Assembly (NCBI GenBank): GCA_965207735.1
Contig: OZ242296.1
Location: 4,896,001 to 4,960,000, forward strand
Direction of reading: 5' to 3'
Origin: Candidatus Versatilivorator sp.
Lineage (GTDB): Bacteria; Acidobacteriota; Terriglobia; Versatilivoradales; Versatilivoraceae
DNA length: 64,000 nt
Every line of letters begins with the position of its first letter. Within the stretch, counting starts at the first letter, position 1. The notes beneath the pieces were generated by a model that searched no databases, had not been told where the DNA came from, and saw only the letters and a list, made by a program, of their open reading frames with translations. This document shows, in pieces, positions 21,850-52,834 of the stretch. Both the position numbers and the translations under genes were made by a program.

Positions 21850-21930
21850 CTTCTATCCGACCGGGTCAGTCGGGACCGGTCCGGCCCCTGGCGGAGCCGG
21901 AAGGCTTGAAGGGTTGTCGGCGGAAGCTTT

Positions 21931-21985
21931 AGCCTGAAACCCCGGCAAAAAGGACCGGAGACCCCGGAAGCATCCCATGCAAAAG
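21931..21985 (+). other. 55-bp relic of the group II intron (domain IV region)
   Basis: agcctgaaaccccg...ccggagaccccggaagcatcccatgcaaaag aligns with 46548-46604 with a few mismatches and a short indel. Confidence 0.75.
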
Positions 21986-22830
21986 ACAACTGACCGGAAT
22001 CCCACCATCGATCGTGTCCAGGTGCAGCTTATAGCCGATCCAACTCTCCTGATGCCCCTTGGCGTTGAGCTTGACGCCGACGTCGCAGACCTTGGGCAGG
22101 TCCTTCAGCATCTCCTCCAGCGTCATCGCCGTCTGCCGTTCGAGTCGGCGCGGCTCCTTTGCCTGTCGCTCGCCCTTCGGCGGCCGGCCCCGCCAGCGCT
22201 TCAGCCGGGCCGTCCGGCCGGGCTTGGGCACCGGCGACTCCCGTCCCACGATGGCGGTCGAGTCCCTCGAAACGTGGCCCGCCAGCGTCCATTCCAGCAG
22301 CGCCTCGTGCCAACGCCCCGCCAAGTCGCTCTCAGCAAACTCCGCAAACGCACGCGAGAAGGTCGCCTCGCTCGGCACCGCCCCCGCCACCTCCCAGCCG
22401 CACAGCCGGCGCAGGGTGCCATCGGTCCGCAGACGCTCCACCAGCCCCCGGGTGGTTGCCACGTTCAGCACCGCCTTCGCCAGGAAGGCCCGGGCCAGCG
22501 CTGCCCGATCCTTCAGCGGCCGGCCCCGCCACCCCTTGCTGTAGGGCAGCGACTCTTCCACCCCCACCAGTTCCAGCACCCGGACAAGCCTCTGGTAGCG
22601 CTCGCCCAGGGGGCCCACAACCTCCTCCAGCCAGGGGAACAGCTCCCGTTGAAACCGGAACCAATGTCGTGATAGGGTTTGTCTGAGGGGCACGTTCAAT
22701 CTCCATTCATCATGTGGTTTAGACACCTTCATGATACAACAGAGAGTGGTCTTGCCCCTCTACTTACCTATCCTCCCCTACCCCTCACGTTATCAAAATC
22801 CCCCTTCTTGCCCGTTTTTGCAAAAGGCTT
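21984..22830 (-). pseudogene. Truncated, diverged relative of the IS at 32490/41460 (IS4/IS5-like DDE transposase fragment)
   Basis: Protein MKVSKPHDEWR...GYKLHLDTIDGGIPVSCL is similar to the 391-aa transposase but stops early; one IR (ttttgcaaaaggct) at ~22816-22829. Confidence 0.85.
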
Positions 22831-23007
22831 GAAGATACAGGTGATCCATACGATTGGGACGATTTTCTTTCGGTTTCAACTAAAGATCCAGCAATAACCC
22901 ACGTGGGCGACGTGTGCAGCTTTGTTGCAATCCGAAGATTGATACACGGACTCCATCCGTCAGACTTTCCGAACGGCTTCGCTTGGCGCGCTGGATGGTG
23001 TGACACC

Positions 23008-32000: not shown

Positions 32001-32292
32001 TCTGGTGAACACGGGGGAGGTGGACGGCAGTGAGAGCGTCTTCCATCTGGAGATCTACGACGGGGAGACAGGGATGCTGGCCGAGACGGTGGTGACCAAG
32101 CCGATCCCGGCGCGGAGCTGGAATCAGATCAACGGGATCCTGGGCAGAGCCTCTTCGGAGACCCGGCAGGGGTATATCCGGATCGAGAAGGTGTCGGGGG
32201 AGAACCCGTTTCTGGCCTATGGGGTGGTCAATGACGGCGGGGCCCCGGGACAGCGCAGCGGAGATGGAGCCTATGGGCCGGCACGGGAATAA
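23008..32292 (+). CDS. Giant secreted/surface multidomain protein (~3100 aa): Spondin_N, cadherin-like, arylsulfotransferase-like, Ig/SwmB-like and Fn3 repeats, plus a duplicated C-terminal domain
   Basis: Signal peptide; APSPDWFVG and WDAGTE (spondin); DYEAPDD and PPDFEAP (cadherin); HIN/SLR/QHTARF/FDNG (ASST); WSEP...YDVQYR...YEVQIKARN (Fn3). ORF is open from 22903. Confidence 0.85.
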   Translation: MRRKHHRCHSGCFTRLASLARSLTAHSAAGLLLTLATLPVITSAQGNPQSVTYRVTFEAKFTASALASGVSVPSGAHFTTLIGAVHNGSATFWSDGGTASAGIESMAEVGGTSALKSEINAAGSNALAVIEQSIASGGTATATVDITLTTDHPLVTLTSMVAPSPDWFVGVSGLSLRNTADDGWQPTLTVNLFPWDAGTEEGTEFSLSNSATSPQGTITSIKGMGKFSDEPIATLTFDLLSAPEITTTSPILVSENETAVATLTADDSDTTAGELIWSKTGGADSDKFSLTEAGVLTFSSAKDYEAPDDADTDRTYEVTVQVSDGTDSDMAELLVTLQNVTELTAITGPESVTFPENSWSRAATFTASSEEDRAGIEWILGGTDSDHFSIDNPAGALRFALDEVSPRIFSEPPDFEAPVDGDAANTYELTLFGRAGTSVTDTRTLTVTVTDEDEEGELSLSSTLPALGAELTADLSDPDGVTDSTAVWQWERSTGRNSWAVIDGADAASYTPVAADANTFLRVTATYDDEHGTGKTVSEVAPNVVTGPLLTGLTAETGNSQADTARGLYPAFDAQTLHYGIGCNGTDTMVLTVSAPANARVAVDGVQAGSAPMSVDVSEDSDVAIRVTEASGAATAYVVHCLANVFFEIEMHTFPGTDAFEDLILLNRGGYFRLMDRNGVPRFRRAYSTLGPFAIRFYRIGADGAYRYGFYLDSAYTILDENFEVVAGGVSVVAPLTVLGYHDFQILEDGNYLLMTFEPATRDFRDIDLPPPADSTVDLSAVSVRDSAFQIVTPGGEAAFTWNSWGNIAIEDCVSHYFPVTLSTDPDARSPRTSYSHINGMHVVDGVLAASLRGCSKVLAIDVEPGATRGDVLWRMGRTNLSDAEWAARDIGPRPLDFVNDPEGEFCGQHTARFLPSGNVFLFDNGVECVIDPWTFEELGREGNDFSRAVEYALDLDNHEAVFVRDHSLRGERAHVGYATGNVNALDNGDWLVSWGRVLDENDRFPDNEMATLVDPATGQEKLGIRFRELPALASARRISPSVAPAEALAPQPVPLAAEFPVSDHTSLLHTGAGDAPQVVVAFNRPVVDFDETSPSLSVTGATIASVSPHRVAGEAANAYVVTLTPAGAGDITFGLVADQTCAGDGICTADGAEVSEVPASQVIRADTTPPEVSRNEVSSNPGTDRTYAAGDRIRVTVTFSETVEVTGMPQLRLEVGGGTRTATYEGGSGTAALVFGHTVAGGESGTDGVGVEADSLSLNGGMIRDVAGNDAVLDHEAVAANASHKVDGVKPRLASTGGAVVDGTMLTLTYDEPLDRSSTPDAGDFTVSGGDQTRTVTRVSVSGSAVALTLSVGAEHEEVGIQVSYTPGTNKIRDVPGNEAEALSRQAVTNETPDTTAPEVSSLSISSNPEADETYAAGDEIEVTVTFNETVKVTGTPQLTLRVGNRNRPAGYDRGTDTEALVFAYEVADGDEDTDGVSVQANRLRLNGGTIKDEAENAAELAHEAAAADTGHQVDGVRPAFVSAAVDGASLTLTYREALDGGSRPASGDFAVTVDGSARTVSGVSIGGSVVTLTLDTAVEHGDTGIWVSYTAGTNPIQDEVGNDAAGLSNRSVTNTTGAPNTDPEITSSSAISVPENQVLVRRLAGRDTDLGDEVTEWAITGGADQGQFEITSDMGELSFRDPPDFEAPGDNEYEVTVEATSGAGGRELTVEKTFTITVTDEREPPGVPDAPTFSGETANSLTVSWSEPDNTGPPITDYDVQYREKDRGGFRDGGHEGPGLSLTLSDLEPGTDYEVQIKARNDEGASDWSASGEGMTVTPLTVVMTSGTEPPVSGSFMVRISFSEPVSGFSGSDIESDQDPECTDDLNNAVFCDPGIGALQTADDRVYTTTVTPETSGVAHSYALTLTLPADAVRSSVDSKPNEEPEEPLAVRVSPPGAPEAISTLSPEANGANGSVRLSWNRPSDNGGSPIIRYEYRHAATGEAWSEWGSVGAGSSGVTVGGLINGREYVFEVRAVNALGKGGVETAMVTPEQGVTRPGTGTGGGGGGGGLLFAPEAPAALTATPGDGAVRLAWSPPESDGGAEILRYEYRLKEGLGEFGEWTPIPDSAPGEVNASGYTLMGLLNGTVYALELRGVNQIGNGRETEAVEAVMPLDPAYRSNFRAEDLEGGEAGLEWTPFGGSRRSLKVRFGGGLRFEERELDAAGEVTATRMGSYRYRYTSRTTGELSLDYDGGETCQLGMSFSGVGAGSYSYRCGGALQGQGSFRLSELNRLPEITSTGPLEVAENQKKVVRLEAVDSDEGDEVAGYEVTGGADGALFRVVEQTGELSFTEAPDYERPADAVSAEPESPAADNEYVVVVEARSGEGERERRRQRAIRVRVSDEEEPPGAPPAPEVRAEGTDSLKVSWSEPENCGPEITGYEVRYREEGEEGYRDGGHEGTGLTLTLTGLEEERLYRVEVRAMNEEGRGEWSQPGEGRTGMEEPDAEDPADFSEEDLEGRRATLRITGEEGTARRIELRFAEGNRFEQIERVEAQAAIRSESAESRSESTTSRSGSYAYERTGPGRGTVRLDYDDGASCELRLSFTESGVGGYLYDCGEGEVAEGSFRLTTGSLFVPVILSSAGRNNSFFTSELTLTNRGMEEATLHYIYTADAGGGSGTATDRLDAGRQKIETDALDYLRGLGVPIPATGNRIGTLRVEVKLGSEVEAVVRTTTLVPEGRAGLAYPGVAEGEGFEEPVYLCGLRQNSQDRSNVAFQNMGTSEEGAITLRTTVYSGEAADTTARELDDVTLEPGGFHQYSGLLGSVENGYVKVERVEGEAPFYAYGVINDQENSDGSFVFPVTAGSLEGKVAQTLPVIVETSEFTSELTVTNFSEEPRRLDFEFVGEQVKADDRTAAFSMVLEGGEQAIVPEVVEELRRQGVAGLGATRGFYAGPLFVTAEEGDLSGVVIGARTGSKGGGGSYSVFYNAVPQGEGFTEEAWVEGLQQNQENRSNLALVNTGEVDGSESVFHLEIYDGETGMLAETVVTKPIPARSWNQINGILGRASSETRQGYIRIEKVSGENPFLAYGVVNDGGAPGQRSGDGAYGPARE

Positions 32293-32489
32293 AAGGACGA
32301 AGGACGCTCTACCCGTCAAAGACAGGAACAATCGCGAATATTTCTGTCAAAACAGTACTGTCCGGTATAACAACAGAAGGTGCGGGACAAAACGCCAATG
32401 TGCAGCTGTACGAGGTGCGCAGGTGCTTCCGATAACGTCTCATTGTGTCAGCTTTCCGGACAGCGACTCATTCCTTATCAATGACGTAA

Positions 32490-33976
32490 GAGCCTTTTGC
32501 AAAATTCGCAGATAGCGGGAATTTTCACGTGGGGAAAGATCAAGGAGGGCAGGTGGAAGGAGGGGCAAGACCACTGTCTGTTGTATCATGAAGGTGTCTG
32601 AACCACATGATGAACGGAGGTGGAACTTGCCCCTTAGGGAAACCCTATCACGACACTGGTTCCGGTTTCAACGAGAGCTGTTTCCCCTGCTGGAGGAAGT
32701 TTTGGGGCCTCTGGGAGAGCGTTACCAGCGGCTGGTGCAGGTATTGGAGTTGGTGCGGGTGGAGGAGTTGCTGCCTTACAGTCGGGGCTGGCGTGGCCGG
32801 CCGCTGGAGGATCGGGCAGTGCTGGCGCGAGCCTATCTGGCGAAGTCGATGCTGGAGGTGGCGACCACGCGGGGATTGGTGGAGCGGCTGAGGAGTGAGG
32901 GGAGGCTGCGGCGGCTGTGCGGCTGGGAGAGGGCGTGGGAGGTACCGAGCGAGTCGACCTTCTCGCGGGCCTTTGCGGAATTCGCTGAGAGCGACCTGCC
33001 GGGGCGTTTGCACGAGGCATTGCTGGAGGAGACGCTGAAGGGCCACTTGGCGGGGCATGTGTCGAGGGACTCGACGGCGATTGCGGGACGGGAAAAGCCA
33101 GCGGCCAAGGCTGCGCCGGAGGCCAAGCGGAAACGCCGGCGGGGCCGGCCGCCGAAGGGCGAGCGACGGCCCAAGCGGTTGAGCCGGCTGGAGCGGCAGG
33201 GGTCGATGACGCTGGAGGAAATGTTGAAGGAGTTGCCCAAGGCCTGCGACATCGGCGTCAAGCGCAACGCCAAGGGGCATCAGGAGAGCTGGACCGGCTA
33301 CAAGCTACACCTCGACGCCATTGACGGCGGGATTCCGGTCAGTTGTCTGCTGACCTCGGCCTCGGTGCATGACTCTCAGGCAGCCATTCCGCTGGCGACG
33401 CTGACGGCAAGGCGGGTCGAGAGTCTCTACGACTTGATGGACAGCGCCTACGATGCGCCGGAGATCCGGGCCTTCAGTGAGAAGCTGGGGCATGTGCCGA
33501 TTATTGACGTCAACCCCCGCCGAAGAGCTACCTTGAAAGCCGAGCGGAAGCGGGAGGCACTGGCCCGGCGCTGTATCGGCCAAGTGACTCCCGAGGCGCG
33601 GCGCTACCGGGAACGCTCGACGGTGGAGCGGGTCAACGGACGGCTCAAGGAGGAGTTTGGCGGGAGGCAGGTGAGGGTTCGCGGCCCCGACAAGGTGAGG
33701 TGCCACCTGATGTTCGGCATTCTGGCCCTGACGGTGGATCAGTTGATGCGCCTGACGCTCTGAAGACCGGGTTGCCACCCCCAACCGCACAGCAGGTTCG
33801 CCCGCCTCAAGGCCGGGAGAGGGTAAGCTGTGCCTGCGTCCGGCGACCGCTGGCCATCCGGCCATCAGATTCGGGCTTTTTCCTTCAAAAGGGTCTTTGC
33901 AGCTGGGTAGTCACCGCCGGAACATCACTGTTGCCAGCCCAATGTCATGCCCGATTCCGAATTTTGCAAAAGGCTC
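32490..33976 (+). mobile_element. Insertion sequence, IS4/IS5-like, 1487 bp, copy 1
   Basis: TIRs gagccttttgcaaaattcg / cgaattttgcaaaaggctc; appears identical to 41460-42946; no target duplication (GTAA/TTTT). Confidence 0.92.
32588..33763 (+). CDS. DDE transposase (IS4/IS5-like)
   Basis: PSESTFSR, DSTAI, GYKLH, HDS, DSAYD and YRERSTVERVNGRLK motifs. Confidence 0.92.
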   Translation: MKVSEPHDERRWNLPLRETLSRHWFRFQRELFPLLEEVLGPLGERYQRLVQVLELVRVEELLPYSRGWRGRPLEDRAVLARAYLAKSMLEVATTRGLVERLRSEGRLRRLCGWERAWEVPSESTFSRAFAEFAESDLPGRLHEALLEETLKGHLAGHVSRDSTAIAGREKPAAKAAPEAKRKRRRGRPPKGERRPKRLSRLERQGSMTLEEMLKELPKACDIGVKRNAKGHQESWTGYKLHLDAIDGGIPVSCLLTSASVHDSQAAIPLATLTARRVESLYDLMDSAYDAPEIRAFSEKLGHVPIIDVNPRRRATLKAERKREALARRCIGQVTPEARRYRERSTVERVNGRLKEEFGGRQVRVRGPDKVRCHLMFGILALTVDQLMRLTL

Positions 33977-34360
33977 TTTTGTCTTTTGTCGGTTGTTTCA
34001 GGCAAGTCCCGCCCCCGCCCTGCCGTGCGGATCATTCGAGAATGAAACAATCAGAAATCGACAATCCTTTCGCGAACTTGGTACCCCGTCGCGGCCAACC
34101 TCAGCGCCTTAGTGCCCCTTCGTCGTTCTTCGTGCCCCTTCGTGGAAATGTCTTTTTCTTTTGTCTTTTTAGGTTGTTTCAGACAAGCCGGACCCCCGCC
34201 CTGCCGTGCGGATCATACATAGAGTGAAACAAACGGAAATCGATCATCCCTTCGCGACCTTGGCACCCCGTCGCGGTTAACCTCAACGCCTTAGTGCCCC
34301 TTCGTGGTCCTTCGTGGATAAGTCTTTTTCTTTGTCTTTTTTCGGTTGTTTCAGGCAAGG
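33977..34360. repeat. About 2.2 tandem copies of a 172-181 bp non-coding unit
   Basis: ggttgtttcag recurs at 33991, 34172 and 34344; ccctgccgtgcggatcat and cgccttagtgccccttcgt each occur twice. Confidence 0.8.
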
Positions 34361-34368
34361 CAAGCGGC

Positions 34369-37300
34369 CTACCGGATCAGGATATTGCTGGCATACTGTC
34401 CCGTTTTGCCATCGATGGTGATTTCCGCGACCAGCCTGAATTCTCCGGGAGCCGACGGCGCATGGGCGCAGAGTTCTCCGACCGTTTGCGTTCCCTCGAT
34501 GTCGTCCCATTCGGCGTCCGGACCGGCTCGGGTCTGCCACTTCGATTGGAGGACGGCGAAGTGGGTGCCGTCGATGAACACGTTTTCGACCGCGATGCAG
34601 TCACTGCTGGAAACGGGACCGAACCTGACCTGGCCGGGTGAAACGGAGAGCATTTCCAGTCGCACAAATCGATCGGCACCGACACCGATACGCTCGAAGA
34701 TGAGGAGTCCCGCCTCTTCGGTGCTGAGGTAGGCGTGCCTGCCGTCGGGACTGGCCACAAAGTGTCGTGTGTGGCCGAACTCGGGGATGGGGTTGTTGAA
34801 CCGATCCGGCCGCCAGGGCGCAACCAGGTCGGTCGGCTCCAGGACACCGTTTTCCGGCTGCCATTGCACGCCGAAGGCCAGGTCCTTGCAAAACAGGTCG
34901 ACCGCCGGGCCTCCCCTTCTTGCGATTCCTCCGCAGCGGTTGTCGAAGGTGAAGAACTCGAACGGCGGGTTCCAGAACGGCGGCAGGCTGCCGATCGGCT
35001 GCGGACTGGAGGGATCCTCTTCCAGTCGGAACAGGTTCGACCTCCTGCCGTTGTCGTCGAAGGCGAACAGGTAGCGGTCGTCGCTGCTGATCACAATGGA
35101 TTCCAGGTTCCGCAAGCCCTGTTCGACGCTCCCAGCCTGGGTGAGCGCCCCTGTTTCCCCGTCGCGCTGGAAAACCAGAAGCGAGGAGTGGGTGGCCGCG
35201 TAGACGTGGCTGCCGCCGTTGGAGATCAGGGCTCGCTTCAGCCCGGGAACCGTCAGGGTCTGGACGTGGCGCAGCTCGCCCGCCGTATCGAAGGCCAGAA
35301 CCTGCAGCTGACCCTGTAGGGGATCGACCGTATGGATGAACGATCCCCCGGAGTCCATGAAGACATCGCCACTGCAATTGGCGGCACCGGACAGGTCGGT
35401 GACCGACAGCATGCCTTCGTCCCGAAGTTCCCGGTGGGTTTCATCGACCGGTGCAAACCGGCGCCAGGCCCCGCACCGATGGGCATAGAGCGCGGCTCTT
35501 TGCCCATCCCAGATCAGCGAACTGTCTTCCAGATCGTAGTCTCCCAGTTCCTGAAGCAGGGTCAGATTACCGGTCTTGGAGTCGCGTTCGAACACTTGCA
35601 GGCCTAGCCCCGAAGCCACGTAGAGCACCGTTCCCCGGTCATTGAGGGCCAGGCTGGCCGGACCCCGAATTGCCACCGGGGTTCCCTGGGCGTCCAGATC
35701 CCCGTCAGCCAGACTTCCGACGTACTTGAGCCAGACCGGAGCTTCACTCTCATCCCAGTCCAAGGAGAACTCGTCGCCGGATTCACTGCCTCGGGTTCCA
35801 AGCCGGATCTTGTATCGGGACCCGGCCTCGGCAAAAAAGACAACCTCGATGGCGTAGGAACCCGTCCATTCCGGCTGATGGCTGCTTCTCACGAACTCGA
35901 GCGGTCCGAAACCGTCGAGGGATTCCCTGTAGACGGCCAGCACCCAGGGAGCGAAGGGCTCATCGATCCGGAATCTGTACCATCCGGAAGCGGGCGCTTC
36001 GTAGGTCCACCAGAGCGAGGAGTGGCCCAGCGGGCCGATCCGTTCGCTCGGCTCCATGGTCGCATAGCGATTCGAGCCGGTGATCGAACCCGTGGCTCCC
36101 GACAGCGGCGCGGCGCTGTGGAAACGGTCGTTGCCGGGGGTGGGTCCCCAGACGATTTTCGCGCTGGCCCCTGGTTCTGAAAAGCCCGAGAGGTCACCCG
36201 TCGGGAAGCCGGCCGCGATCCAGTACCGTTGCCCGCCCGCGGCCTGAAAGACGAAATCGGACGGCTCCGCATCCATCCGGCTCTCCGCCACCAGGTGCAG
36301 GGCCTCGATGGAGCTTCCGGTAAACACGGTCACCCGCAGCCTCGAATGCGTCGGGAACAGCGATAGAGAGAACTCGCCGGGATCCTTCAGGCTCCAGGTA
36401 TAGAGGCCGTCCTCCGGAGCTTCCCACACCCACCACTTGGTCCGGACTCCGCTCTCGGCCGACTCTCCAGGCTCCACGGTCGCGAAGGGATCCACCACGA
36501 TAAGGTGTTCCGAGGCCAGCGCGCTCTCGATCGGTTCCGCACCCGCAATGTCGTCGTTTGGAGGGCGGGGAGCGAAGGGCAGCGCCGACCATCTCAGCGG
36601 GTAGGCGCCTCCGGACGAATAGGCCGTGGGCTCGGCGACGGCGATGAGATACTCCCTTCCGCCTCCGGCAGTGACAACCGAGCCCTCCAAGGGGAAGCTC
36701 GACACCAGCCGGAGCCGGGAAATGCCGTCTGTGGCGGTGGTGTCGGGCGGGAAGAGGTCTCTCTCGAAGACGCCGCTCTCGGCTGGGTATTTCTCGAACA
36801 CAAAGACACGCCGCGGGGCATCGGTCTCGAACACCCACAAGCCGTCGGCGGGCGCGGTCCACCGGTACCAGGTGGTGGCCGCCGCGAACCCGAACCACTC
36901 GCCGGGCTCCAGAGTGGCCCCCCGGTTGTTGCCAAGGACCAGGCCGGCCGGGCCCTCAATCAGGCTGGCCTCCGCCAGGTTGTCGTTGACGGGGCGGGAT
37001 CCCCTGGCCCAGCGAAGCTCGAGGGCAGCGCCTCTGGCGTCGTTGCTCACCCGGATGCGATAGGTCCGTCCTTGCTCGGCGAAGAATGTCGATCCCCACT
37101 GGCCGGAGGCGATCCGGTCCAGGGCCGCGATGCGGTCGCCTCGAAAGATGTCGATGCGGTCGCTGCGCATGTCACCGGGATCGACAGGCGGAGGAATGTC
37201 GAAATGGACCGGACCGTCGGCCTGCGCCGTCCATGCGTACCAGACCGAACCGGCCGGGCGCCCCCGGCTGGCGGTGAACAGCGGTTCTCCCGGCTCCGGG

Positions 37301-40251
37301 GTGGCCAGTAGCAGATCCAGAGCCGCTGACCCCTCCTGGCCCTCGATCGGGGCTGCCGCCAGGAAGTCGTCGTTCGGGGGCCTGCCGGCAATCCCGGATG
37401 CGGCTTGGCCCGCACCCGCGCCGACCGACACCGATGCCGCCTGCGCGTTCCAGGCGCTCGCGCTAAAGTAGAGGCGCGCCGTGCCCGACTCCCCGGTGTG
37501 GGAAACCCTCAACTTGATTTCCCGAGCCTCTCCCGCCGAGATTTCGCCGAGCGGGATCGAAGACCCCAGAGGAACGGGGGAGGCCTCGACCGCTTCCTGC
37601 CCCGGAAATGCAGGGATCTCGGGTTCCGGCGCCTCGAGTTCACCCGACAACTCCACCGTCAGTCCATCCTGGCGGGACACCTCCACGGTGTGAATCCGCA
37701 CCTGGTCGCAGCCGGAGAGGCCTCCCTCGTCCCGGCAGTCGATGTGGAGCCGGGTTCCGGAGGCCACGTAGTCGTTTGCGCTCAGGGTCAGGGTCAGTTC
37801 CTGTTCCGGGCCGCCTTCGAGGGCGCTGCTGTCGGCTTCGATCCTCAGGTTGGGGGTGGAGGCGCCCCGGATCACCGTCCAGGCCAGCGCCGCCCGAGGC
37901 GCGGCGGTGTAGATGCGGTGGGCCGCCACCTTGGCCCGGTAGACGCCTGGTTGTGGATTTCTGAGGATGATCCACTCCACGTTGTCCACCCGGGAAGAGG
38001 AAACATGCTCCCCACAGGCGACGGCCCCGCAATCGGCGTCGCGGTCGAGCCACAGGTCGAGATCGTTCAACACGGCGCTTGCGATGGTGTCGGTGGGCGG
38101 CTCGTCCCAGGCCATCACCAGGTCGAGGCGGCTGGCGCCTTCCGGCACCAGGATGTCCTGAAAGGCGTACTCGCCGTCCTGCAACTCGGAGACCGCGCCG
38201 CCGCCGCTCCAGCCGTCGGTTCGATCCCGGTTGAGCACGGCGGTTCGGGCAGACACCTTGCCCAGTCCGTACTGGGCATGCAGCCTTCCCGGCCCGCCGG
38301 TGTTCGTCGCGGGGAACGCCGCGGCGTCCTCCAGCCATGCGTCCGGCCGGATGGCGCTGGCCATCAGCCGGGCCCGGGCCAGCGCGGGCTGCTCCCGGAA
38401 GGCCGGGACCGCATCCATCAGCAGGGCGGCCACCCCGGCCACCGCAGGCGACGAGAAACTGGTGCCGTTGAAGCGGACATAGCCCCCGGGGCTGCCCTCG
38501 CCCCGGGCCGTGTGGATGCCGACGCCGGTGGCGACCACCTGGGGCGCCAGGCGTCCGTCGAAGGTGGGCCCGTGACTGCTGAAGGACGCGATGTCCCCGC
38601 TGTCCAGCACGGCGCCGACGGCCAGCGAGTTCTTGGCGCTGGCGAAGTCGGAGAATCCATTGATCCCTTCGTTCGATTGCGCGACCACATACAGTTGGCG
38701 GTGACTCCAGACGATGGAGTCGAGCTTGCGCTCGTCGACTCCCCTTCCCTCGAATTCCCTGGAGGACCCACTAAGGCTCACATTGACGATCAGGGGTTTA
38801 GCCGGAAGGGACGGGTTGGCTGCTTCGGCGCACTCGGTCGGGCGGGCAAGAAAATCCATGGCTCGATTGACGCCGTCCCCGAATCCGAATCCGGAGCTGT
38901 TCAAGACCTTGGCGAAACGGATGTGGCGAACCGAAGGCGCCATGCCGGCGAAACGGGGTTCGTCGGAACCGTTTCCGAGGATGGTTCCGGTGACGGCGGT
39001 ACCGTGTGAACCTGCATCGATCCACAGGTCCTCGGACTCGTCGGTCCCGCCGAACCCCAAGAAGCCGAGGTCCAGCGAGAAGTTGGCCCCGCACACGCTT
39101 TCCCGGTTGGACGCGATGTCGGGATGGTTGATATTGATTCCGGTGTCCATGACGCCGATAGGGACCGAGGCCCCGCCGATGCCCGAGAAGAGACCGGGAG
39201 CCCCGTCGTATCTTCGCAAGGCATCGGCGCCCATGGCGGGAACAGCCGTGTCGAGCCTGGATTCGAAGATCCCGATGGGCTCGACCGCCAGCACGAAATC
39301 CGCCGCGGCAATTGCCTCCATCCGAGCCTGGGGCAGACTGGCCGCATAGACCCGGATGTTCGGGTCGAAGCGACCCACCACCGCCCCCAGCTCCTCGAGC
39401 GCCTGCCGCCAGCGGGCGTCGGGATCGCCGGTCATCAGGGTGATGTACACGGGCGTCGATTCCTGGGCGGAGGCGCCGGGCGATGGGTTCACCAGCGCCT
39501 GGGCAAGTTTTCTCTCCAGGGGCAGGGCGCCCAGCCCATCGACCTCCGGCAAGGCCGCGATGGCTTGCAGACGGGCCTCGTCGCCCGGGAGCCTGGCGCG
39601 AACGAGCACTCCCGAGGAACCGACGATCCGGGCGCCCGTGCCTTCGAGCGCCTGCGCCAGGTCATTGGCCGTGGCGTCCCCGGCAAGCCGGATCCAGCCG
39701 AAAGACCAGTCACGTCCGGCCGCGGCGGCCTGGGCGGACAGCCTCTCGATCGCAGTCTCCGTGCCGAGCCAGTCGAGATCCATCAGGGAGCGTTCGCCTC
39801 CAGCGGCCACCTCACCCTGGAGTCGCTCCCGGGGCATCTCACCGTGGTAGGAGACGAACGAATAGCCGGCGGGAGGGGAGGGAGAGGAGTCTTGCACGGA
39901 CTGTTCGGAGACGGACGACGCCGCGGAAGATCGAGGCGCGGCCTCAATGGCCGGTTCCCGGACGCCTCCACGGCTTTCCTCGGATATCCGGGCCGCGGCG
40001 GCTCGGGTCATCTTGGATGCCTGCGCCGGGGCCAACCGTGCCTTTTCCCGGCCCTCGCCAGGGGAAGTCTCGGAAGTGACCAGGTCCGGCGAGCCTGCCA
40101 TCACGCACAGGACGCCAAGGGTAGTGAGACTGCTTCTATACGCTTGCGCAAACCGCGATGCCCGGCTCGAAGCAGTTGGCCAGGTCCCGCCGCCGGTCTT
40201 GCTCAGCCGGCTGACCGCTTCCCGGATGTGCCGTTTGAGAGGTTCGGTCAC
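34369..40251 (-). CDS. Large S8 (subtilisin-like) serine peptidase with repeated 'PxND' beta-sandwich modules and a C-terminal beta-propeller
   Basis: Catalytic triad VMDTG / SHGTAV / GTSFSSP; four PPNDD/PVNDN/PGNDR repeats; lactonase-like SPDGRHAY blades. Start uncertain. Confidence 0.88.
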   Translation of the reverse strand: MTEPLKRHIREAVSRLSKTGGGTWPTASSRASRFAQAYRSSLTTLGVLCVMAGSPDLVTSETSPGEGREKARLAPAQASKMTRAAAARISEESRGGVREPAIEAAPRSSAASSVSEQSVQDSSPSPPAGYSFVSYHGEMPRERLQGEVAAGGERSLMDLDWLGTETAIERLSAQAAAAGRDWSFGWIRLAGDATANDLAQALEGTGARIVGSSGVLVRARLPGDEARLQAIAALPEVDGLGALPLERKLAQALVNPSPGASAQESTPVYITLMTGDPDARWRQALEELGAVVGRFDPNIRVYAASLPQARMEAIAAADFVLAVEPIGIFESRLDTAVPAMGADALRRYDGAPGLFSGIGGASVPIGVMDTGININHPDIASNRESVCGANFSLDLGFLGFGGTDESEDLWIDAGSHGTAVTGTILGNGSDEPRFAGMAPSVRHIRFAKVLNSSGFGFGDGVNRAMDFLARPTECAEAANPSLPAKPLIVNVSLSGSSREFEGRGVDERKLDSIVWSHRQLYVVAQSNEGINGFSDFASAKNSLAVGAVLDSGDIASFSSHGPTFDGRLAPQVVATGVGIHTARGEGSPGGYVRFNGTSFSSPAVAGVAALLMDAVPAFREQPALARARLMASAIRPDAWLEDAAAFPATNTGGPGRLHAQYGLGKVSARTAVLNRDRTDGWSGGGAVSELQDGEYAFQDILVPEGASRLDLVMAWDEPPTDTIASAVLNDLDLWLDRDADCGAVACGEHVSSSRVDNVEWIILRNPQPGVYRAKVAAHRIYTAAPRAALAWTVIRGASTPNLRIEADSSALEGGPEQELTLTLSANDYVASGTRLHIDCRDEGGLSGCDQVRIHTVEVSRQDGLTVELSGELEAPEPEIPAFPGQEAVEASPVPLGSSIPLGEISAGEAREIKLRVSHTGESGTARLYFSASAWNAQAASVSVGAGAGQAASGIAGRPPNDDFLAAAPIEGQEGSAALDLLLATPEPGEPLFTASRGRPAGSVWYAWTAQADGPVHFDIPPPVDPGDMRSDRIDIFRGDRIAALDRIASGQWGSTFFAEQGRTYRIRVSNDARGAALELRWARGSRPVNDNLAEASLIEGPAGLVLGNNRGATLEPGEWFGFAAATTWYRWTAPADGLWVFETDAPRRVFVFEKYPAESGVFERDLFPPDTTATDGISRLRLVSSFPLEGSVVTAGGGREYLIAVAEPTAYSSGGAYPLRWSALPFAPRPPNDDIAGAEPIESALASEHLIVVDPFATVEPGESAESGVRTKWWVWEAPEDGLYTWSLKDPGEFSLSLFPTHSRLRVTVFTGSSIEALHLVAESRMDAEPSDFVFQAAGGQRYWIAAGFPTGDLSGFSEPGASAKIVWGPTPGNDRFHSAAPLSGATGSITGSNRYATMEPSERIGPLGHSSLWWTYEAPASGWYRFRIDEPFAPWVLAVYRESLDGFGPLEFVRSSHQPEWTGSYAIEVVFFAEAGSRYKIRLGTRGSESGDEFSLDWDESEAPVWLKYVGSLADGDLDAQGTPVAIRGPASLALNDRGTVLYVASGLGLQVFERDSKTGNLTLLQELGDYDLEDSSLIWDGQRAALYAHRCGAWRRFAPVDETHRELRDEGMLSVTDLSGAANCSGDVFMDSGGSFIHTVDPLQGQLQVLAFDTAGELRHVQTLTVPGLKRALISNGGSHVYAATHSSLLVFQRDGETGALTQAGSVEQGLRNLESIVISSDDRYLFAFDDNGRRSNLFRLEEDPSSPQPIGSLPPFWNPPFEFFTFDNRCGGIARRGGPAVDLFCKDLAFGVQWQPENGVLEPTDLVAPWRPDRFNNPIPEFGHTRHFVASPDGRHAYLSTEEAGLLIFERIGVGADRFVRLEMLSVSPGQVRFGPVSSSDCIAVENVFIDGTHFAVLQSKWQTRAGPDAEWDDIEGTQTVGELCAHAPSAPGEFRLVAEITIDGKTGQYASNILIR

Positions 40252-45193: not shown

Positions 45194-45955
45194 ATGCTCA
45201 GGAAACCCCTTCGAACGCTGGTGGTGGACGACGAACCCGTATCCCGGCGGGTGCTGCTGGAGGACCTGGCCGAGATGGAGGACGTCTCGGTGGTCGGTGA
45301 AGCCGACAACGGCCAGCGGGCGCTGCAGCAGATCGAGAAGCTCCGGCCGGACCTGGTCCTGCTCGACATTCAAATGCCGGTCATGGACGGCTTCCAGGTG
45401 CTCAGCCAACTCCAGGGGCCGCTGCCATCCATCATCTTCGTGACCGCTTACAGCGAGCATGCCCTCAATGCCTTCGAGGTCGGGGCAGTCGACTACCTGC
45501 TGAAACCCGTCAGTCCCGATCGTCTGAACAGAGCGGTGGAGCGTGCCTGGGCCGCCCTGGGGAACCGGCTGGAAGCCGTGGAACGGGTGGCCTTAACGCT
45601 GGGTGCGGCCGAGGCCGGGAAGAAGCGGCGAGTAGTGAAGATCGCCGCCAGGAAAGGTGAAGACTACTATCTGCTGGATATGGATGAAGTCTTTGCTTTT
45701 CAGGCCGATCGCGAAATCGTCTGGATCAGGACCCGCGACAAGAGCTACATGGCCGCTCAGACCCTCCAGGCCATCGACGATCGCCTGGGCGGAACCCAGT
45801 TTCAGCGGGTCCATCGGAGCGTTCTGGTCAACCTGGACAAGGTCCGCAAGATAAGCACTCTCAGCAGCCAGCGCTGGTTGCTGACTCTGACCAACGGACT
45901 GGAATACACCGTGAGCAAGCGGCAGACTCCCCTGCTCCGGGACCTGCTGCGGTAA
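45194..45955 (+). CDS. LytTR-family response regulator
   Basis: VDDE, LDIQMP, FVTAY and DYLLKP receiver motifs; FQRVHRS LytTR motif. Confidence 0.95.
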   Translation: MLRKPLRTLVVDDEPVSRRVLLEDLAEMEDVSVVGEADNGQRALQQIEKLRPDLVLLDIQMPVMDGFQVLSQLQGPLPSIIFVTAYSEHALNAFEVGAVDYLLKPVSPDRLNRAVERAWAALGNRLEAVERVALTLGAAEAGKKRRVVKIAARKGEDYYLLDMDEVFAFQADREIVWIRTRDKSYMAAQTLQAIDDRLGGTQFQRVHRSVLVNLDKVRKISTLSSQRWLLTLTNGLEYTVSKRQTPLLRDLLR

Positions 45956-46025
45956 GCCGCGTTGCTCACCGGCGCCCGGGTAGTGGAACAAGCGGGAGGA
46001 TTGCTTCCGCCGCCTATGCAGCTAG

Positions 46026-47137
46026 CCCGCATTTCTCAGTGCGCCATGGAAAGGCGCCTTCTTCCAACGGGTGCGAAACCCGTCCAACAACTGTCGCTCC
46101 GGTTGGTAGCAGTCAGGGCGGATCATGGAGGTAACGATATGGTCTGAAGCCCTCTGGTGTCAAAGGGCCGCTTAAGGCGGTTCAGCGAGCATGCGGGCCG
46201 GAACGCGAGTGAACGTCGAGCAGGCCTCGAAACGGGCAATGCGGGGGCCGACCCACCTGAGAAATGGGGAAGGCCGAAGACGGAGGGGGAAGCGAGCGAC
46301 GCGGGCACCCCTTTGGACCCGCCGGGGTAGTGGCGCTGGCACGCATGGAAGGGGAAGAAGGCAGCAACATGGGAAGCCCTGTGGGTGGTGAGGCACGCAC
46401 CGAACCGGAAGCTCGCGAGAGTCAGTCTAGGCCGACAGGGTGGCGGAGAGGCCTGTAGTACCGGAGAAGCCGGGTAATACCGGTGGAGGGAAGGGGCCTC
46501 AGGTGAGGAGCGGTGACCGAAGGGGGAAGGGTCCCGGGAGTGGCGAAAGCCTGAAACCCCGACCAAAAAAGGGCCGGAGACTCCGGAAGCATCACATGCA
46601 AAAGTGAAAGGGTCGTCGGAGGAGGACGGCGTCGTCAGGGCATCAACAGGCCTGGCGGCAACCCGGGAGCGGAAGTGGATGGAGTGGGGGACGGGTGCCA
46701 ATCCCATAGGAGTCGTCCACGGATGCGAGCGGGGACCTGTGTGCGAGACGCATGATCCCACTGGAGAGCCGAGATGCGGGAAAACCGCACGTCCGGTTCG
46801 GAGAGCGGGGACTGGAAACGTGATAAGGGAGCCGGACTGAGGCCCGAAGCGAAAGCGACGGAATAGCCACCGGACCCTATAGTCAACGCGCCAGTCCTCG
46901 ACTCTACCCAGGGGGCATGATCATGGCGCAGGATTTTTCCCTTCAGCGCGTGCTCGCGACCGAAGAGCGTAGCGGTCACTACGCGCGAGGGAGCATGTGC
47001 GCGCTGAAGGGAAAAAGACAAGCCAGGGCATGCCCAGCGCCGTCTGTTACCCGCAAACCCTTACCATGGAGCCAATCAAAGTACTGAAGATGAACTACTT
47101 TTCGTCATGGCACCAGCGACCTGGTGAGAGATGCGGG
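46026..47137. mobile_element. 243-bp MITE, copy 2 (inverted), interrupted in its TIR by a group II intron
   Basis: CTAG at 46022-46025 and 47138-47141. Removing 46039-46907 restores cccgcatttctca|ccagggggcatg and gives exactly 243 bp. Confidence 0.9.
46039..46907 (+). ncRNA. ORF-less group II intron ribozyme (869 nt)
   Basis: 5' GTGCG; domain V gagccgagatgcgggaaaaccgcacgtccggttc (46766-46799) with AGC triad; domain VI with bulged A at 46901; 3' end ...CTCTAC; EBS1 and EBS2 complementary to the 5' exon; no RT ORF. Confidence 0.92.
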
Positions 47138-47295
47138 CTAGGGGGTTGAACTGACCTGTTCCAATGGGCTGCCGCCCCGACTTACGCCCACGGTTAAGTG
47201 CGGACGCCGCCTTGGCGGCTTATTGGCCCCCAGAGTGGCGCCCCGGGGGATGATCATTGGAAAATGCCGGCCCCTGTCCCAGCCAGGGATTCCAT

Positions 47296-49552: not shown

Positions 49553-51250
49553 CCCGCATTTCTCACCAGAGTTCGCACAGGAGCGGTAAAAGGGGCCATG
49601 GAGGCATTTGAGGCCGAGTTTAACAACGTTGGTGGCTGGATCGGTAGGCAAAGGCCAACAGCGGAGGCTTCTGAGGCTCTCCGAGGAACCTCAGGCGGCA
49701 TTTTCCCTCGAAAACAGCGACACCTCTGCCATCGGGCCTGGTGGCCGCGTCTTCAAGGGCCAGGAGTGACGGTCGGGTCAGGGCACCTCAGGGCGGCAGG
49801 TGAGCCCAAGCGATGCGGAACTCCCTCTGGTAAGGACATCCGGAAGCCATGGCGACCTTGATGCGACGGACCGAGATGGTGACCTGAGCGCCGATCTTGA
49901 GCAGTTTGAGTCTGATGGAACCGACGGTGGCCCGGGCCAGGCAGGTGGATTGCAGCGCCCGCCGGCGCAAGCCCTCCACCAGCACATAGGCGAAAGAGGT
50001 CATCAGGAGCCGGAGCTGATTCGCCCGGAAGGAGTGGGTGGAGGTGCGATCGGCAAACAGGTCGAGTTGCTGCTCCTTGATGCGGTTTTCCATCTCACCG
50101 CGGGCACAGTAGATCTTCTCATAGAGGAACTGGGCGGGGTAGTCCTGGACCGACAGAGAGGTGACGACGAAGCGGGGGTTGGGGCCGCGGGGCAGGACCT
50201 CGGCTTTGGCGACCAGGCGGCGCTCGTGGGACCAGCTCTTGTGAGTGCGGTAGGAGAGGTCGGTGAAGATCCGGGCGGGCTGCTGTTGCTGGTCTGAGAG
50301 GGCCTGGGCCTGAGCCAACTCGGGGGCGATGGCGTCTTGGAGGCGGGAGTTGCGGGCCAGGCCGAAGAGATAGTCGACCTGATGCTGCTCACACCACCCC
50401 ATCAGCTCCTCACGGGCAAAGCCGGAGTCGGCCCGCAGCAGGATCTTGACCTGAGGCCAGACACGCCGTAGGCGGGAGACGATGCGCTGGACCTGCTCCA
50501 GAGCGCCGGCGGAGGCATCGATGTTGGCGGGTCTGAGCAGGGCCGAGAGCAGATGGCGGCCCGAGAAGATGTAGAGGGGCAGGTAGCAGTAGCCTCGGTA
50601 GTAGCCGTGGAAGAAGCGGTCCTCTTGTTCCCCGTGGAGGGGATCGTCAGTGGCGTCGAGGTCGAGGATGATCTCATCGGGGGGTTGGGGATGGGCTTGC
50701 AGAAACAGTTTCACCAGGAGGGCTTGCAAGGCCTCGGGGTCGTGGTCAATCTTGTGGTAGCGGGTGGGGCCTTGGGTGGGGGCGTGTTCGAGTCGGTTGA
50801 GGGTGCTCTTGCCTGCCAGGGGAGGCGAGTCGCCACGACGGCCTTTCTCTGAAAACAAGGCCATGAGGGGATCGTGACGGAGTTGGTCGTGGTCGATGAG
50901 ATCCTCGTAGCCGAGGGCGATGCCACGGATGCGCTGAGCGATGAGGGTGCGCAGGCTGTATTGGGTCCGCTTGGGGTCGCGGTGATCGGTGAAACAGTCG
51001 GCCACCTGGTCGGAGAGAGATAAGCCCCGATCCACCCGGCGCAACAGCAGGGAGCCGGCATCGGAAGTGATGGGACCGCCGTCGAAATCAGCCACCACGC
51101 GGCGGCGGCCGTGGGGTTCAAACTCCAGGGGTTTGGTGTTACACTGTGTCGGCATCGGTTCTCCTTTAAGAATCTGGTTAACTCCTTAGACAAGAGTATT
51201 TTACCAGATTCCGAGAACCGATGCTTCCTACCTCTGGTGAGAAATGCGGG
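49553..51250 (-). mobile_element. IS1380-family insertion sequence (1698 bp)
   Basis: TIRs cccgcatttctcaccagag / ctctggtgagaaatgcggg; CTAG on both sides (49549-49552 and 51251-51254). Confidence 0.93.
49788..51155 (-). CDS. IS1380-family transposase
   Basis: FDGGPITSDAG, GYED, DLDATDD, HGEQE, RADSGF and YCARGEMENRIKE motifs. Confidence 0.95.
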   Translation of the reverse strand: MPTQCNTKPLEFEPHGRRRVVADFDGGPITSDAGSLLLRRVDRGLSLSDQVADCFTDHRDPKRTQYSLRTLIAQRIRGIALGYEDLIDHDQLRHDPLMALFSEKGRRGDSPPLAGKSTLNRLEHAPTQGPTRYHKIDHDPEALQALLVKLFLQAHPQPPDEIILDLDATDDPLHGEQEDRFFHGYYRGYCYLPLYIFSGRHLLSALLRPANIDASAGALEQVQRIVSRLRRVWPQVKILLRADSGFAREELMGWCEQHQVDYLFGLARNSRLQDAIAPELAQAQALSDQQQQPARIFTDLSYRTHKSWSHERRLVAKAEVLPRGPNPRFVVTSLSVQDYPAQFLYEKIYCARGEMENRIKEQQLDLFADRTSTHSFRANQLRLLMTSFAYVLVEGLRRRALQSTCLARATVGSIRLKLLKIGAQVTISVRRIKVAMASGCPYQREFRIAWAHLPP

Positions 51251-51254
51251 CTAG

Positions 51255-52834
51255 GAGTCTGCGCCGCAGAAAACCCGGGCAGGGCTGAATGATACAATAA
51301 CGGGCTTAGAGACATCATAGGAGGTGGTGGATGGGGACAAGGTTTCGCCCGTATCAGCCGAAGCAACTGTTGATGTTGCCGCCGGACCTGGGGGAGTGGG
51401 TACCGGAAGGGCACTTGGCCCATCAGGTGAGTGAGTTGGTGGATGGGCTGGAGTTGAGAGCGTTTTACCGGCCCTATGAAGAGGACGGGAGGCGCAACTC
51501 GCCCTACGAGCCGCGGATGATGGTGAAGGTGTTGATTTACGCCTATGCGACAGGGGTGTTCTCGTCGCGCAAGATCGCGAGGAAGCTGGAGGAAGACGTG
51601 GCGTTTCGGATGCTGGCGGCGGGGAACTTTCCGCAGCATCGGACGTTGTGCGAGTTTCGCCGCCGGCATTTGAAGGACTTCAAGCAGCTGTTCGTACAGG
51701 TGGTGAGCTTGGCGCGGGAGATGGGGATGGTGGGGTTGGGGCGATTGGGGATCGACGGGACGAAGGTGCGGGCGAACGCGAGCCGGCGCAAGGCGATGAG
51801 CTATGGTCGGATGAAGGAGCGGGAGCGGCAACTGAAGGCAGAGATCCATGAGTTGTTGAAGAAGGCGCGGCGGGAGGACCGGGAGGAAGATGAGCGGTAC
51901 GGGGAAGACCGGCGTGGGGATGAGTTGCCCGAGGAGTTGCGGCGGCGGGAGGACCGGCTGGCGGCGATCGAGGCGGCCAAGCAGCGGCTGGAGGCGGCCC
52001 AGCGGGAGGCCGATGAGGAGCGGGGGCGCAAACCGGGACAGGACCGCAACCCGAAAGCACGACGGCCCTACAAGCGGGCCTACGGAGAACCGGAGGAGAA
52101 GGCGCAGAGTAATTTCACCGATCCGGAAAGCCGGATCATGAAGACTTCCACCGAGGGGTTCCAGCAATGCTACAACGCGCAGGTGGCGGTGGACGGAGAG
52201 CACCAGATCATTGTGGCCACCGAGGTAACGGCGCAGGCGAGCGATCAGGGGCAGATGATGGAGTTGCTGGAGGAGGTGGAGGAGAGCTTCCAGGAGATAC
52301 CGAAACAGGTGCTGGCGGATGCGGGCTACTGCAATGAGGAGGACTTGCAGGCCCTGGAAGAGAGAGGAGTGGACGGTTATGTTGCGCTGGGGCGCGAGGG
52401 GAAGCGGGCGGTAGAGATCGATCCCAGGAAGCATCCGGCCAAGAGTCGTATGAGGAAGAAGCTGGCCAGCCTAGCCGGTCAGGTGGAGTATCGGCGGAGG
52501 AAGTGGATTGCCGAAGCCCCTCATGGGTGGATCAAGGAGGGGCTGGGATTCCGACGGTTCAGTCTGCGGGGCTTGCAATCAGTGCAGGGGGAGTGGGACT
52601 TGGTGTGTCTGGCCCTCAACATCAAGAGGATGAGTGCGTTGATGGCGGCCTGAAGCAAGGGATTTCCACCCAATACCCAGGGCCACGGAGGTCCTCAACC
52701 GCCCATTGTGGGAGCCCACAGGACGCTTGAGACTCTATCAACGCCCAAGTGGCTCCCAAGCACTCCTTGGAACCGGCCTTGCGCAGTAGCCTCTCGCTCT
52801 TGAACTTTCCGAAATCGTCCTGCGGCGCAGACTC
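51255..52834 (+). mobile_element. IS1182-family insertion sequence (1580 bp)
   Basis: Perfect 15-bp TIRs gagtctgcgccgcag / ctgcggcgcagactc; CTAG on both sides. Confidence 0.92.
51331..52653 (+). CDS. IS1182-family transposase
   Basis: PYEPRMMVKVLIYAY, SSRKI, DGTKVRANAS, TDPESR, YNAQ, ADAGY and GFRRFSLRG motifs. Confidence 0.94.
   Translation: MGTRFRPYQPKQLLMLPPDLGEWVPEGHLAHQVSELVDGLELRAFYRPYEEDGRRNSPYEPRMMVKVLIYAYATGVFSSRKIARKLEEDVAFRMLAAGNFPQHRTLCEFRRRHLKDFKQLFVQVVSLAREMGMVGLGRLGIDGTKVRANASRRKAMSYGRMKERERQLKAEIHELLKKARREDREEDERYGEDRRGDELPEELRRREDRLAAIEAAKQRLEAAQREADEERGRKPGQDRNPKARRPYKRAYGEPEEKAQSNFTDPESRIMKTSTEGFQQCYNAQVAVDGEHQIIVATEVTAQASDQGQMMELLEEVEESFQEIPKQVLADAGYCNEEDLQALEERGVDGYVALGREGKRAVEIDPRKHPAKSRMRKKLASLAGQVEYRRRKWIAEAPHGWIKEGLGFRRFSLRGLQSVQGEWDLVCLALNIKRMSALMAA

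Follow-up and report, generated by a model that had tools for sequence, protein, structure and literature searches.

The question raised by this locus is why a group II intron that encodes no protein should sit within the terminal inverted repeat (TIR) of a MITE: whether it serves as an RNA-guided inactivator of transposons, as the first-pass annotation proposed, or is placed there by its own mode of spread. The window (the whole stretch of DNA analysed, 64,000 nucleotides of a Candidatus Versatilivorator sp. genome) contains the following features at and around this site, all on the plus strand unless stated otherwise:

45194–45955, plus strand: LytTR response regulator gene, a possible source of read-through into the intron, which begins after a gap of 83 nt
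46022–46025, plus strand: left 4-bp target duplication CTAG, the G of which (position −14) faces EBS2
46026–46038, plus strand: outer 13 bp of the MITE left TIR, forming the end of the 5′ exon (IBS2 at −14 to −11, IBS1 at −7 to −1)
46039–46907, plus strand: ORF-less group II intron of 869 nt, GTGCG...CTCTAC (Rfam, census, fold)
46093–46099, plus strand: predicted alpha loop, complement of 46294–46300 (sequence and folds; putative tertiary contact)
46234–46239, plus strand: EBS2, its first four bases pairing with exon −14 to −11 (covariation, permutation, consensus structure)
46257–46264, plus strand: terminal loop with predicted delta (46257, placed by IIB anatomy) and EBS1 (46258–46264)
46294–46300, plus strand: predicted alpha-prime at a stem-loop tip 3′ of EBS1, a class E/F trait (folds)
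46330, plus strand: EBS3 (G), partner of C46908, the first base of the 3′ exon (covariation)
46508–46763, plus strand: domain IV without an ORF, faintly resembling by eye the beginning and the end of the RT gene in the sibling
46766–46799, plus strand: domain V, with the AGC triad at 46767–46769 and a 5-nt loop (Rfam, fold)
46802–46907, plus strand: domain VI, long, with a bulged A at 46901 (seventh base from the end) as predicted branch point (fold)
46908–47137, plus strand: remainder of the 243-bp MITE, including its uninvaded right TIR
47138–47141, plus strand: right target duplication CTAG
49553–51250, minus strand: IS1380-family element of 1698 bp, intact and uninvaded, which shares the TIR (transposase 49788–51155)
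51255–52834, plus strand: IS1182-family element, with its transposase at 51331–52653, inserted at a CTAG that has an IS1380 end on one side and a MITE end on the other

The boundaries first proposed for the intron are confirmed: it splits the MITE TIR 13 bp from the element end, and its excision in silico yields an intact 243-bp MITE flanked by the CTAG duplication. The only two Rfam matches in the window both belong to this intron, group-II-D1D4-4 at 46065–46208 (81.5 bits; cut-off 49) and Intron_gpII at 46764–46907 (41.2 bits; cut-off 40); it has the GUGYG 5′ end, the AY 3′ end, the domain V AGC triad and the domain VI bulged A that are hallmarks of group II introns, pairing of its EBS sequences with the flanking exons is borne out by covariation and by a consensus structure, and the whole 869 nt fold with z=−2.5 relative to 20 shuffles. 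The first-pass annotation was also right that no RT is encoded. The sole ORF of more than 200 aa within 46039–46907 is antisense (46123–46761) and has no Pfam match, and a tblastn search for an RT remnant in domain IV with three sibling RTs returned nothing below E=0.19. A sigma-70-like promoter match (10/12) lies on the minus strand of the intron at window positions 46134–46163, pointing outward to LytTR, with 0.1 such matches expected by chance in the scanned region.

We classify the intron as IIB-like with class E/F features. The RT of a sibling intron in the same genome is 45% identical to that of Nitrobacter hamburgensis X14 plasmid 1, whose intron we take to be class F, and 32–38% identical to GR4 plasmid RTs (32–34% for the full-length ones), in pairwise comparisons; the class D motif LX3AX3PXLF[V/A]HW is absent, by eye, from three sibling RTs. 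The location of EBS2 in a multibranch loop and the presence of EBS3 agree with the definition of IIB introns used here, taken from the available part of PMC8643678. An alpha-prime at a stem-loop's tip and a 5-nt domain V loop, together with EBS1, EBS2 and EBS3, are the traits given for IIE and IIF introns in the accessible sections of PMC3753933, and all are found here. Class C (IIC) introns seek hairpins and have no EBS2; this class is ruled out, because EBS2 covaries with the targets.

The MITE is non-coding and has the same TIR and 4-bp duplication as the IS1380 element, in keeping with the relationship suggested for the two, although they share only 17–20 bp of their ends in addition to the duplication; flanks are identical in 25 of 35 full-length MITEs. 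The IS1380 assignment rests on a transposase match to NF033539 (410.6 bits; cut-off 180) and on identical 4-bp flanks in 20 of the 21 full-length copies; the transposase frame is open in all 21, including the 14 that are uninvaded. We infer that the MITE moves by means of the IS1380 transposase, and the 1698-bp element is its likely mover. The right TIR of the MITE at this locus has one mismatch in the EBS1 target. No terminator was called between the LytTR gene and the intron, and read-through from this gene is a possible supply of precursor transcript here.

A search of the genome with the 5′ end of the intron gave 47 matches, comprising 45 two-ended introns, one short remnant and one chance match. 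The ORF-less family accounts for 28 copies in six haplotypes; 22 are identical, which supports a recent spread, and the copy in the window departs from the family consensus by a single base (46113). The predicted flanks are found throughout: the TIR 13-mer lies directly 5′ of all 28 copies (27 exact, one with one mismatch) and CC directly 3′. There are 157 exact TIR 13-mers in the genome, 143 of them followed by CC, and of these 27 are filled and 116 (81%) are empty; none of the 14 without the following CC is invaded. Introns occupy 7 of the 21 full-length IS1380 copies (one of them by an RT-bearing sibling) and 15 of the 35 full-length MITEs, and the remaining seven ORF-less copies lie in shorter MITE variants or lone ends. 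Copies that share an intron variant sit in different elements or ends.

The same junction is present in three complete genomes of relatives (16 copies in G005, 8 in G009 and 13 in G011) at about 95% identity. Filled and empty sites number 16 and 207 in G005, 8 and 602 in G009, 13 and 48 in G011, and 1 and 47 in G002, where filled sites allow one mismatch and empty sites none; G004 has 108 empty sites. Two scars of intron loss were seen. At G000:C1:572744–572990 a MITE end is followed by just the first seven intron bases, and at G000:C1:331225 about 19 intron bases remain next to a TIR-like site; these suggest imprecise deletion as a route of loss. Sequencing runs were checked as assembled contigs only, from 4 of the 24 listed runs. 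RNA contigs from two runs contain no spliced or lariat joint, and in such contigs spliced RNA and empty MITEs look alike; a DNA contig from the unique flank enters the intron by only 11 bases, too short for bridging. Intron-like contigs are far deeper than LytTR-like ones in two RNA runs, in a depth that sums copies and organisms and so shows neither splicing nor expression of the locus at 46039–46907.

Target recognition was examined with 87 intron/target pairs (61 distinct introns) from this genome and related loci, leaving out tandem copies, short flanks and mis-called 5′ ends; the counts include related sequences, so the numbers are inflated, and the EBS2 register is free to shift by two bases (−12 to −10). 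The EBS1 proposed at 46258–46264 (TGAGAAA) holds up well: it forms a terminal loop in folds and covaries with exon −1 to −5, with intron positions 220–224 tracking exon −1, −3, −4 and −5, the best being −4 (97% paired, 53% expected). EBS3, at intron position 292 (46330), is paired with +1 in 98% of cases (68% expected; MI 1.0 bit), and exon −12 and −13 point to intron 197–198. The EBS2 originally placed at 46193–46198 has to be moved, since 65 pairs show only two variants of that segment and its score is 2.73, against 2.69 when shuffled. It is 46234–46237 (GGGC) that covaries instead, with 3.22 of 4 pairs formed against a null of 2.24 ± 0.14 (maximum 2.75 in 300 shuffles of 22 distinct EBS2 sequences). 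In a consensus fold of 14 sequences this EBS2 is unpaired in a multibranch loop, EBS1 is a terminal loop and alpha-prime is at a stem-loop tip. A look-alike at 46240–46245 was rejected, being base-paired in the consensus structure and different in L066, a relative with the same target.

With EBS2 at 46234–46237, IBS2 takes one base, the last, from the target duplication and its other three from the start of the TIR. The earlier idea that the duplication contributes a G to IBS2 survives in part: G−14 is paired, with C46237 of the corrected EBS2, but it is not required, since 5 of 20 sites with an A are invaded, as are 22 of 120 with a G. T and A are the commonest bases at −16 and −15 in the clade targets (64% and 69%, respectively), and in this element both come from the duplication; 27 of 132 sites with A−15 are invaded and 0 of 11 without it, the second group being small. 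EBS2 is dispensable for splicing of class E/F introns and a role in homing has been suggested for it, according to PMC3753933; its covariation with targets here fits such a role. A second IS end with 29 matches in the genome has none invaded, as expected since a matching EBS1 is lacking. The covariation and the uniform flanks of all 28 copies thus bear out the proposal of guide-directed homing into the TIR.

Fifteen RT-bearing sibling introns are present in the genome, in families B (one copy), C (13) and D (one). Sibling B (G000:C1:5004992) is an RT-bearing relative of the kind that was to be looked for: it has the EBS1 and EBS3 of the ORF-less intron and lies inside a variant IS1380 TIR. Its protein is a 456-aa RT/maturase above the TIGR04416 cut-off, in which a Pfam scan found only RVT_1 and GIIM, with no endonuclease domain; the C and D proteins are of equal length and 83% identical to B, the only one covered by the domain scan. 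Most of the 13 C copies are in another repeat, and the window contains, at 33985–34388, dispersed repeats resembling the C-intron target, with about 296 loose matches genome-wide. Sibling D occupies a hairpin repeat in which an ORF-less copy of 866 nt and a deletion remnant of 117 nt are found as well. This remnant (G000:C1:4260992–4261108) has exact 5′ and 3′ intron ends around an internal deletion, and the hairpin repeat has 18 empty copies. Sequence features expected of an ORF-less intron mobilised in trans are found: it lacks an RT ORF, numerous recent copies occupy cognate sites, and an RT sibling is co-resident.

The occupied sites are strongly biased with respect to replication. If the origin is taken to lie at dnaA (3.54 Mb) and the skew maximum (0.73 Mb), near which a dif site was sought and not found, to mark the terminus, 24 of 64 sites on the lagging-strand template are filled and only 3 of 79 on the other strand (p=2e-7); by local skew the figures are 21 of 62 and 6 of 81 (p=8e-5). 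Among the other 17 introns, 14 are on the lagging template by origin and terminus (p=0.013) and 11 by local skew (p=0.33), and four of the 28 ORF-less copies are on the opposite strand. The region G000:C1:3960000–4510000 has a GC skew reversed relative to its replichore, suggesting a recent inversion or a misassembly, and the two introns in it follow the local skew. Transcription was considered as the cause of the strand bias and rejected, as orientation of the upstream gene has no effect (17/82 and 10/61, with a crude ORF caller). The claim that each insertion creates two homing sites needs correction: in practice there is about one, the invaded end being the lagging-template end in 19 of the 22 invaded full-length elements. 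Both ends are filled in none of the 56 full-length elements, but this is uninformative as evidence of exclusion, since only about 1.8 double-filled elements are expected.

We thus favor, with a probability of roughly 0.8, a non-autonomous intron of IS1380 and MITE ends whose likely mode of spread is retrohoming into the lagging-strand template, assisted by a sibling RT. A transcript initiated outside the element would be spliced with the sibling maturase, and the excised RNA would reverse-splice into single-stranded DNA at the replication fork, where the nascent lagging strand would prime cDNA. The inverted repeat would present one correctly oriented site per element whichever way the element faces, and bursts of IS1380 and MITE would bring a fresh supply of sites. 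A lagging-template bias is reported for the endonuclease-minus introns RmInt1 and RmInt2 in the available parts of PMC4615759 and PMC5894124. The element at 46039–46907 is real and probably active. We regard it as a selfish hitch-hiker that exploits a harmless and renewable target, any damage to the transposon being a side effect.

The proposal that the intron is an RNA-guided inactivator, which wrecks the TIR, takes the copy out of the mobile pool and restrains IS1380 and the MITE, perhaps to the benefit of the host, is in our view doubtful. Insertion does leave the outer 13 bp cut off from the inner part of the TIR and, in left ends, also from the region of the transposase gene start, and a comparable role has been argued for RmInt1 (accessible parts of PMC4238363 and PMC5894124). 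Frequent copying of invaded elements would also be expected to erode the strand bias, which is strong at invaded ends while the orientation of the elements themselves is 10/21 and 12/35; a recent arrival of the intron also explains the bias, however, and right-invaded MITEs are somewhat more alike than chance predicts (p=0.019; 0.12 for lagging ends only), which fits some copying with the intron inside. Moreover, the outer 13 of about 18 TIR bases stay at the element end, and since ISEcp1/ISEc9, of the IS1380 family, transposes with right ends matching only 3–12 of 14 bp (PMC12116815, in the part available), 13 intact terminal bases may suffice. Nor is there a sign of restraint across genomes, with 602 empty and 8 filled sites in G009 and 108 empty in G004; in this genome 116 of 143 sites are empty, no intron has entered 14 of the 21 full-length IS copies, whose transposase frame is open, and most of the invaded elements are MITEs, which supply no transposase.

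The likeness among right-invaded MITEs also bears on the alternative that invaded elements transpose, or are gene-converted, with the intron inside, so that part of the spread is DNA-based, which we regard as unlikely. The 11 right-invaded MITEs have a nearest-neighbour distance of 3.7 where 5.9 is expected, so some copies may not be independent homing events; the sole identical pair among 595 MITE pairs (5027596 and 5213340) is invaded at the right end in both members, and a wrong-strand copy (54570) is two changes from a right-strand invaded copy. Against this, the clustering falls to p=0.12 when lagging-template ends alone are considered, copies with a shared intron variant occupy different elements or ends, and the overall strand bias speaks for a spread chiefly by homing. 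Finally, although activity is a prediction from sequence and consensus polishing may inflate the near-identity of repeats, it is very improbable that this is a dead relic or an assembly artefact, a decayed intron multiplied by collapsed repeats, given six haplotypes, unrelated flanks, intact domains V and VI, the strand bias and the junction's recurrence, with about 95% identity, in three further complete genomes.

Returning to the retrohoming intron that we favor, comparison with its siblings bears on its ancestry. The last 150 nt are 97–100% identical among ORF-less copies at three different targets, in this and five other genomes, and only 62–65% identical to those of the tested co-resident RT siblings. 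Up to position 403 the ORF-less D copy agrees with the RT-bearing D at 58 of 61 informative sites, and beyond it with the 28-copy family at 15 of 17 (p=2e-11); L045 shows the same switch with C (48/53, then 13/14; p=4e-9) and L044 a switch near position 300, the breakpoints having been picked after seeing the data. At the level of sequence these switches show a mosaic ancestry, in which the guide-bearing 5′ part and the ORF-less 3′ part differ in their closest relatives, and they point to an ORF-less 3′ backbone that bears three different guide modules gained by recombination. Gene conversion between intron copies is known, with a 700-bp event described in the available part of PMC3522654. It is not the case that ORF-less-type domains V–VI never occur with an RT, as one RT intron of G012 has them at 91%; exchange may thus go both ways, or the G012 lineage may be the source.

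We tentatively suggest, at somewhat less than even odds, that ORF-less domains IV–VI are a long-lived parasitic chassis that captures domain I guides from RT siblings, within a clade pre-adapted to integrated IS ends. EBS2 and the upstream TA would then read the duplication/TIR junction, and mainly a change of EBS1 would shift the intron between IS1380 and IS1634 at the same 13-bp offset. If true, this would be a natural and modular reprogramming of an RNA-guided integrator against transposon families. The survey of the wider clade, which covered the best 72 loci of 267 RT matches, places the nearest RT relatives in Ca. Versatilivorator, Versatilivoraceae and Terriglobia (Acidobacteriota), then Gemmatimonadota and Alphaproteobacteria. 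The opposite TIR of a host element is found within the locus at 11 of the 72 (leaving out a twelfth match, L129, which is local-repeat-like). At L080, L082, L085, L086, L088, L091 and L109 the intron is 13 bp inside a 2.07-kb element, which is of the IS1634 family as judged by the L082 ORF; L124 (Gemmatimonadota) has it 13 bp inside an IS1380, and L122 (Amylibacter) in an IS1634 end in a slightly different register. Sister introns thus lie in IS1634 ends at the same offset. Many other of the 72 loci are unrelated sites or tandem arrays, so the hunting of ends is recurrent, not universal. The Paracoccaceae loci L105, L113, L114 and L117 are head-to-tail arrays of at least three intron copies, including 719-nt ORF-less copies beside RT-bearing ones.

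The IS1182-family element of the window is one of 13 full-length matches in the genome, with one further interrupted copy, and an IS1380/MITE TIR adjoins one or both IS1182 ends in 10 of these 14; in nine cases it is the left end that lies against the TIR. IS1182 therefore also seems to seek IS1380/MITE ends. Lagging-template sites beside IS1182 are filled in 7 of 7 cases and others in 17 of 57 (p=6e-4, post hoc), and a consensus scan found no outward promoter in the IS1182 left end. In relatives, IS1182-type ends adjoin the same TIR in 13 cases in three genomes; two of the 13 TIRs have an intron start. G009, with only about 1% of its sites filled, accounts for 8 of these TIRs and for 0 of the starts.

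The closest published counterpart is RmInt2 of Sinorhizobium meliloti GR4, all copies of which lie in ISRm17 inverted repeats and which is described, in the available parts of PMC4615759 and PMC5894124, as targeted by EBS1, EBS2 and EBS3 without an endonuclease and with a lagging-strand bias. The intron studied here likewise homes into IS inverted repeats, with the same three guides, no endonuclease found (in the B protein) and a lagging-strand bias. The accessible part of PMC4615759 further notes that with inverted repeats there are twice as many targets and one is sure to lie on the lagging strand, and that the IEPs of related introns are partly interchangeable. RmInt2 is, however, a class D intron with its own RT and seven copies, whereas ours is ORF-less, class E/F-like and present in 28 copies; unlike RmInt2 it occupies MITEs as well, and what its EBS2 reads is the junction between duplication and TIR. 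TeI3 of Thermosynechococcus elongatus has many ORF-less copies in families with different EBS sequences, as here, driven in trans by an IEP, and its F4 family lies in an IS; its IEPs have an endonuclease domain, and ORF-less TeI3 arose from one deletion with clear remnants, in contrast to what we find (PMC2882425, in the part available). The same portion of PMC2882425 describes neither exchange of guide modules between ORF-less and ORF-bearing families nor a TIR target. RmInt1 in ISRm2011-2 is argued to limit its host IS through poor splicing (PMC4238363 and PMC5894124, available sections); for the intron at 46039–46907 the block proposed would instead be at the DNA end.

Homing into IS inverted repeats, control of an IS by an intron and trans-mobilised ORF-less introns are therefore already published; what is added here is recombination of guide modules, hits in IS1634 at the same offset and over-invasion beside IS1182. 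A literature search outside which most subscription papers lay found no paper on introns in IS1380 ends or on this intron group, and none on exchange of guide modules or retargeting of an ORF-less intron by recombination. The intron does not represent a new kind of element. It does offer a natural system, with invaded copies beside matching empty ones, for three questions: whether an intron in the TIR stops a DNA transposon; what EBS2 does in class E/F introns, its covariation with targets pointing to homing; and how ORF-less introns change target, which in this family happens through exchange of modules. The ribozyme, compact at 869 nt and with guides that can be swapped, is a candidate for a targeting vector as well.

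Elsewhere in the window there are very long ORFs at 22903–32292 (3129 aa, with internal repeats of about 680 bp) and 34369–40251 (1960 aa), and two near-identical copies, at 32479–33986 and from 41449 onward, of another IS with a DDE transposase. The latter is IS5/IS1182-like, below the family cut-offs, and has a diverged partial copy near 21929–22829.
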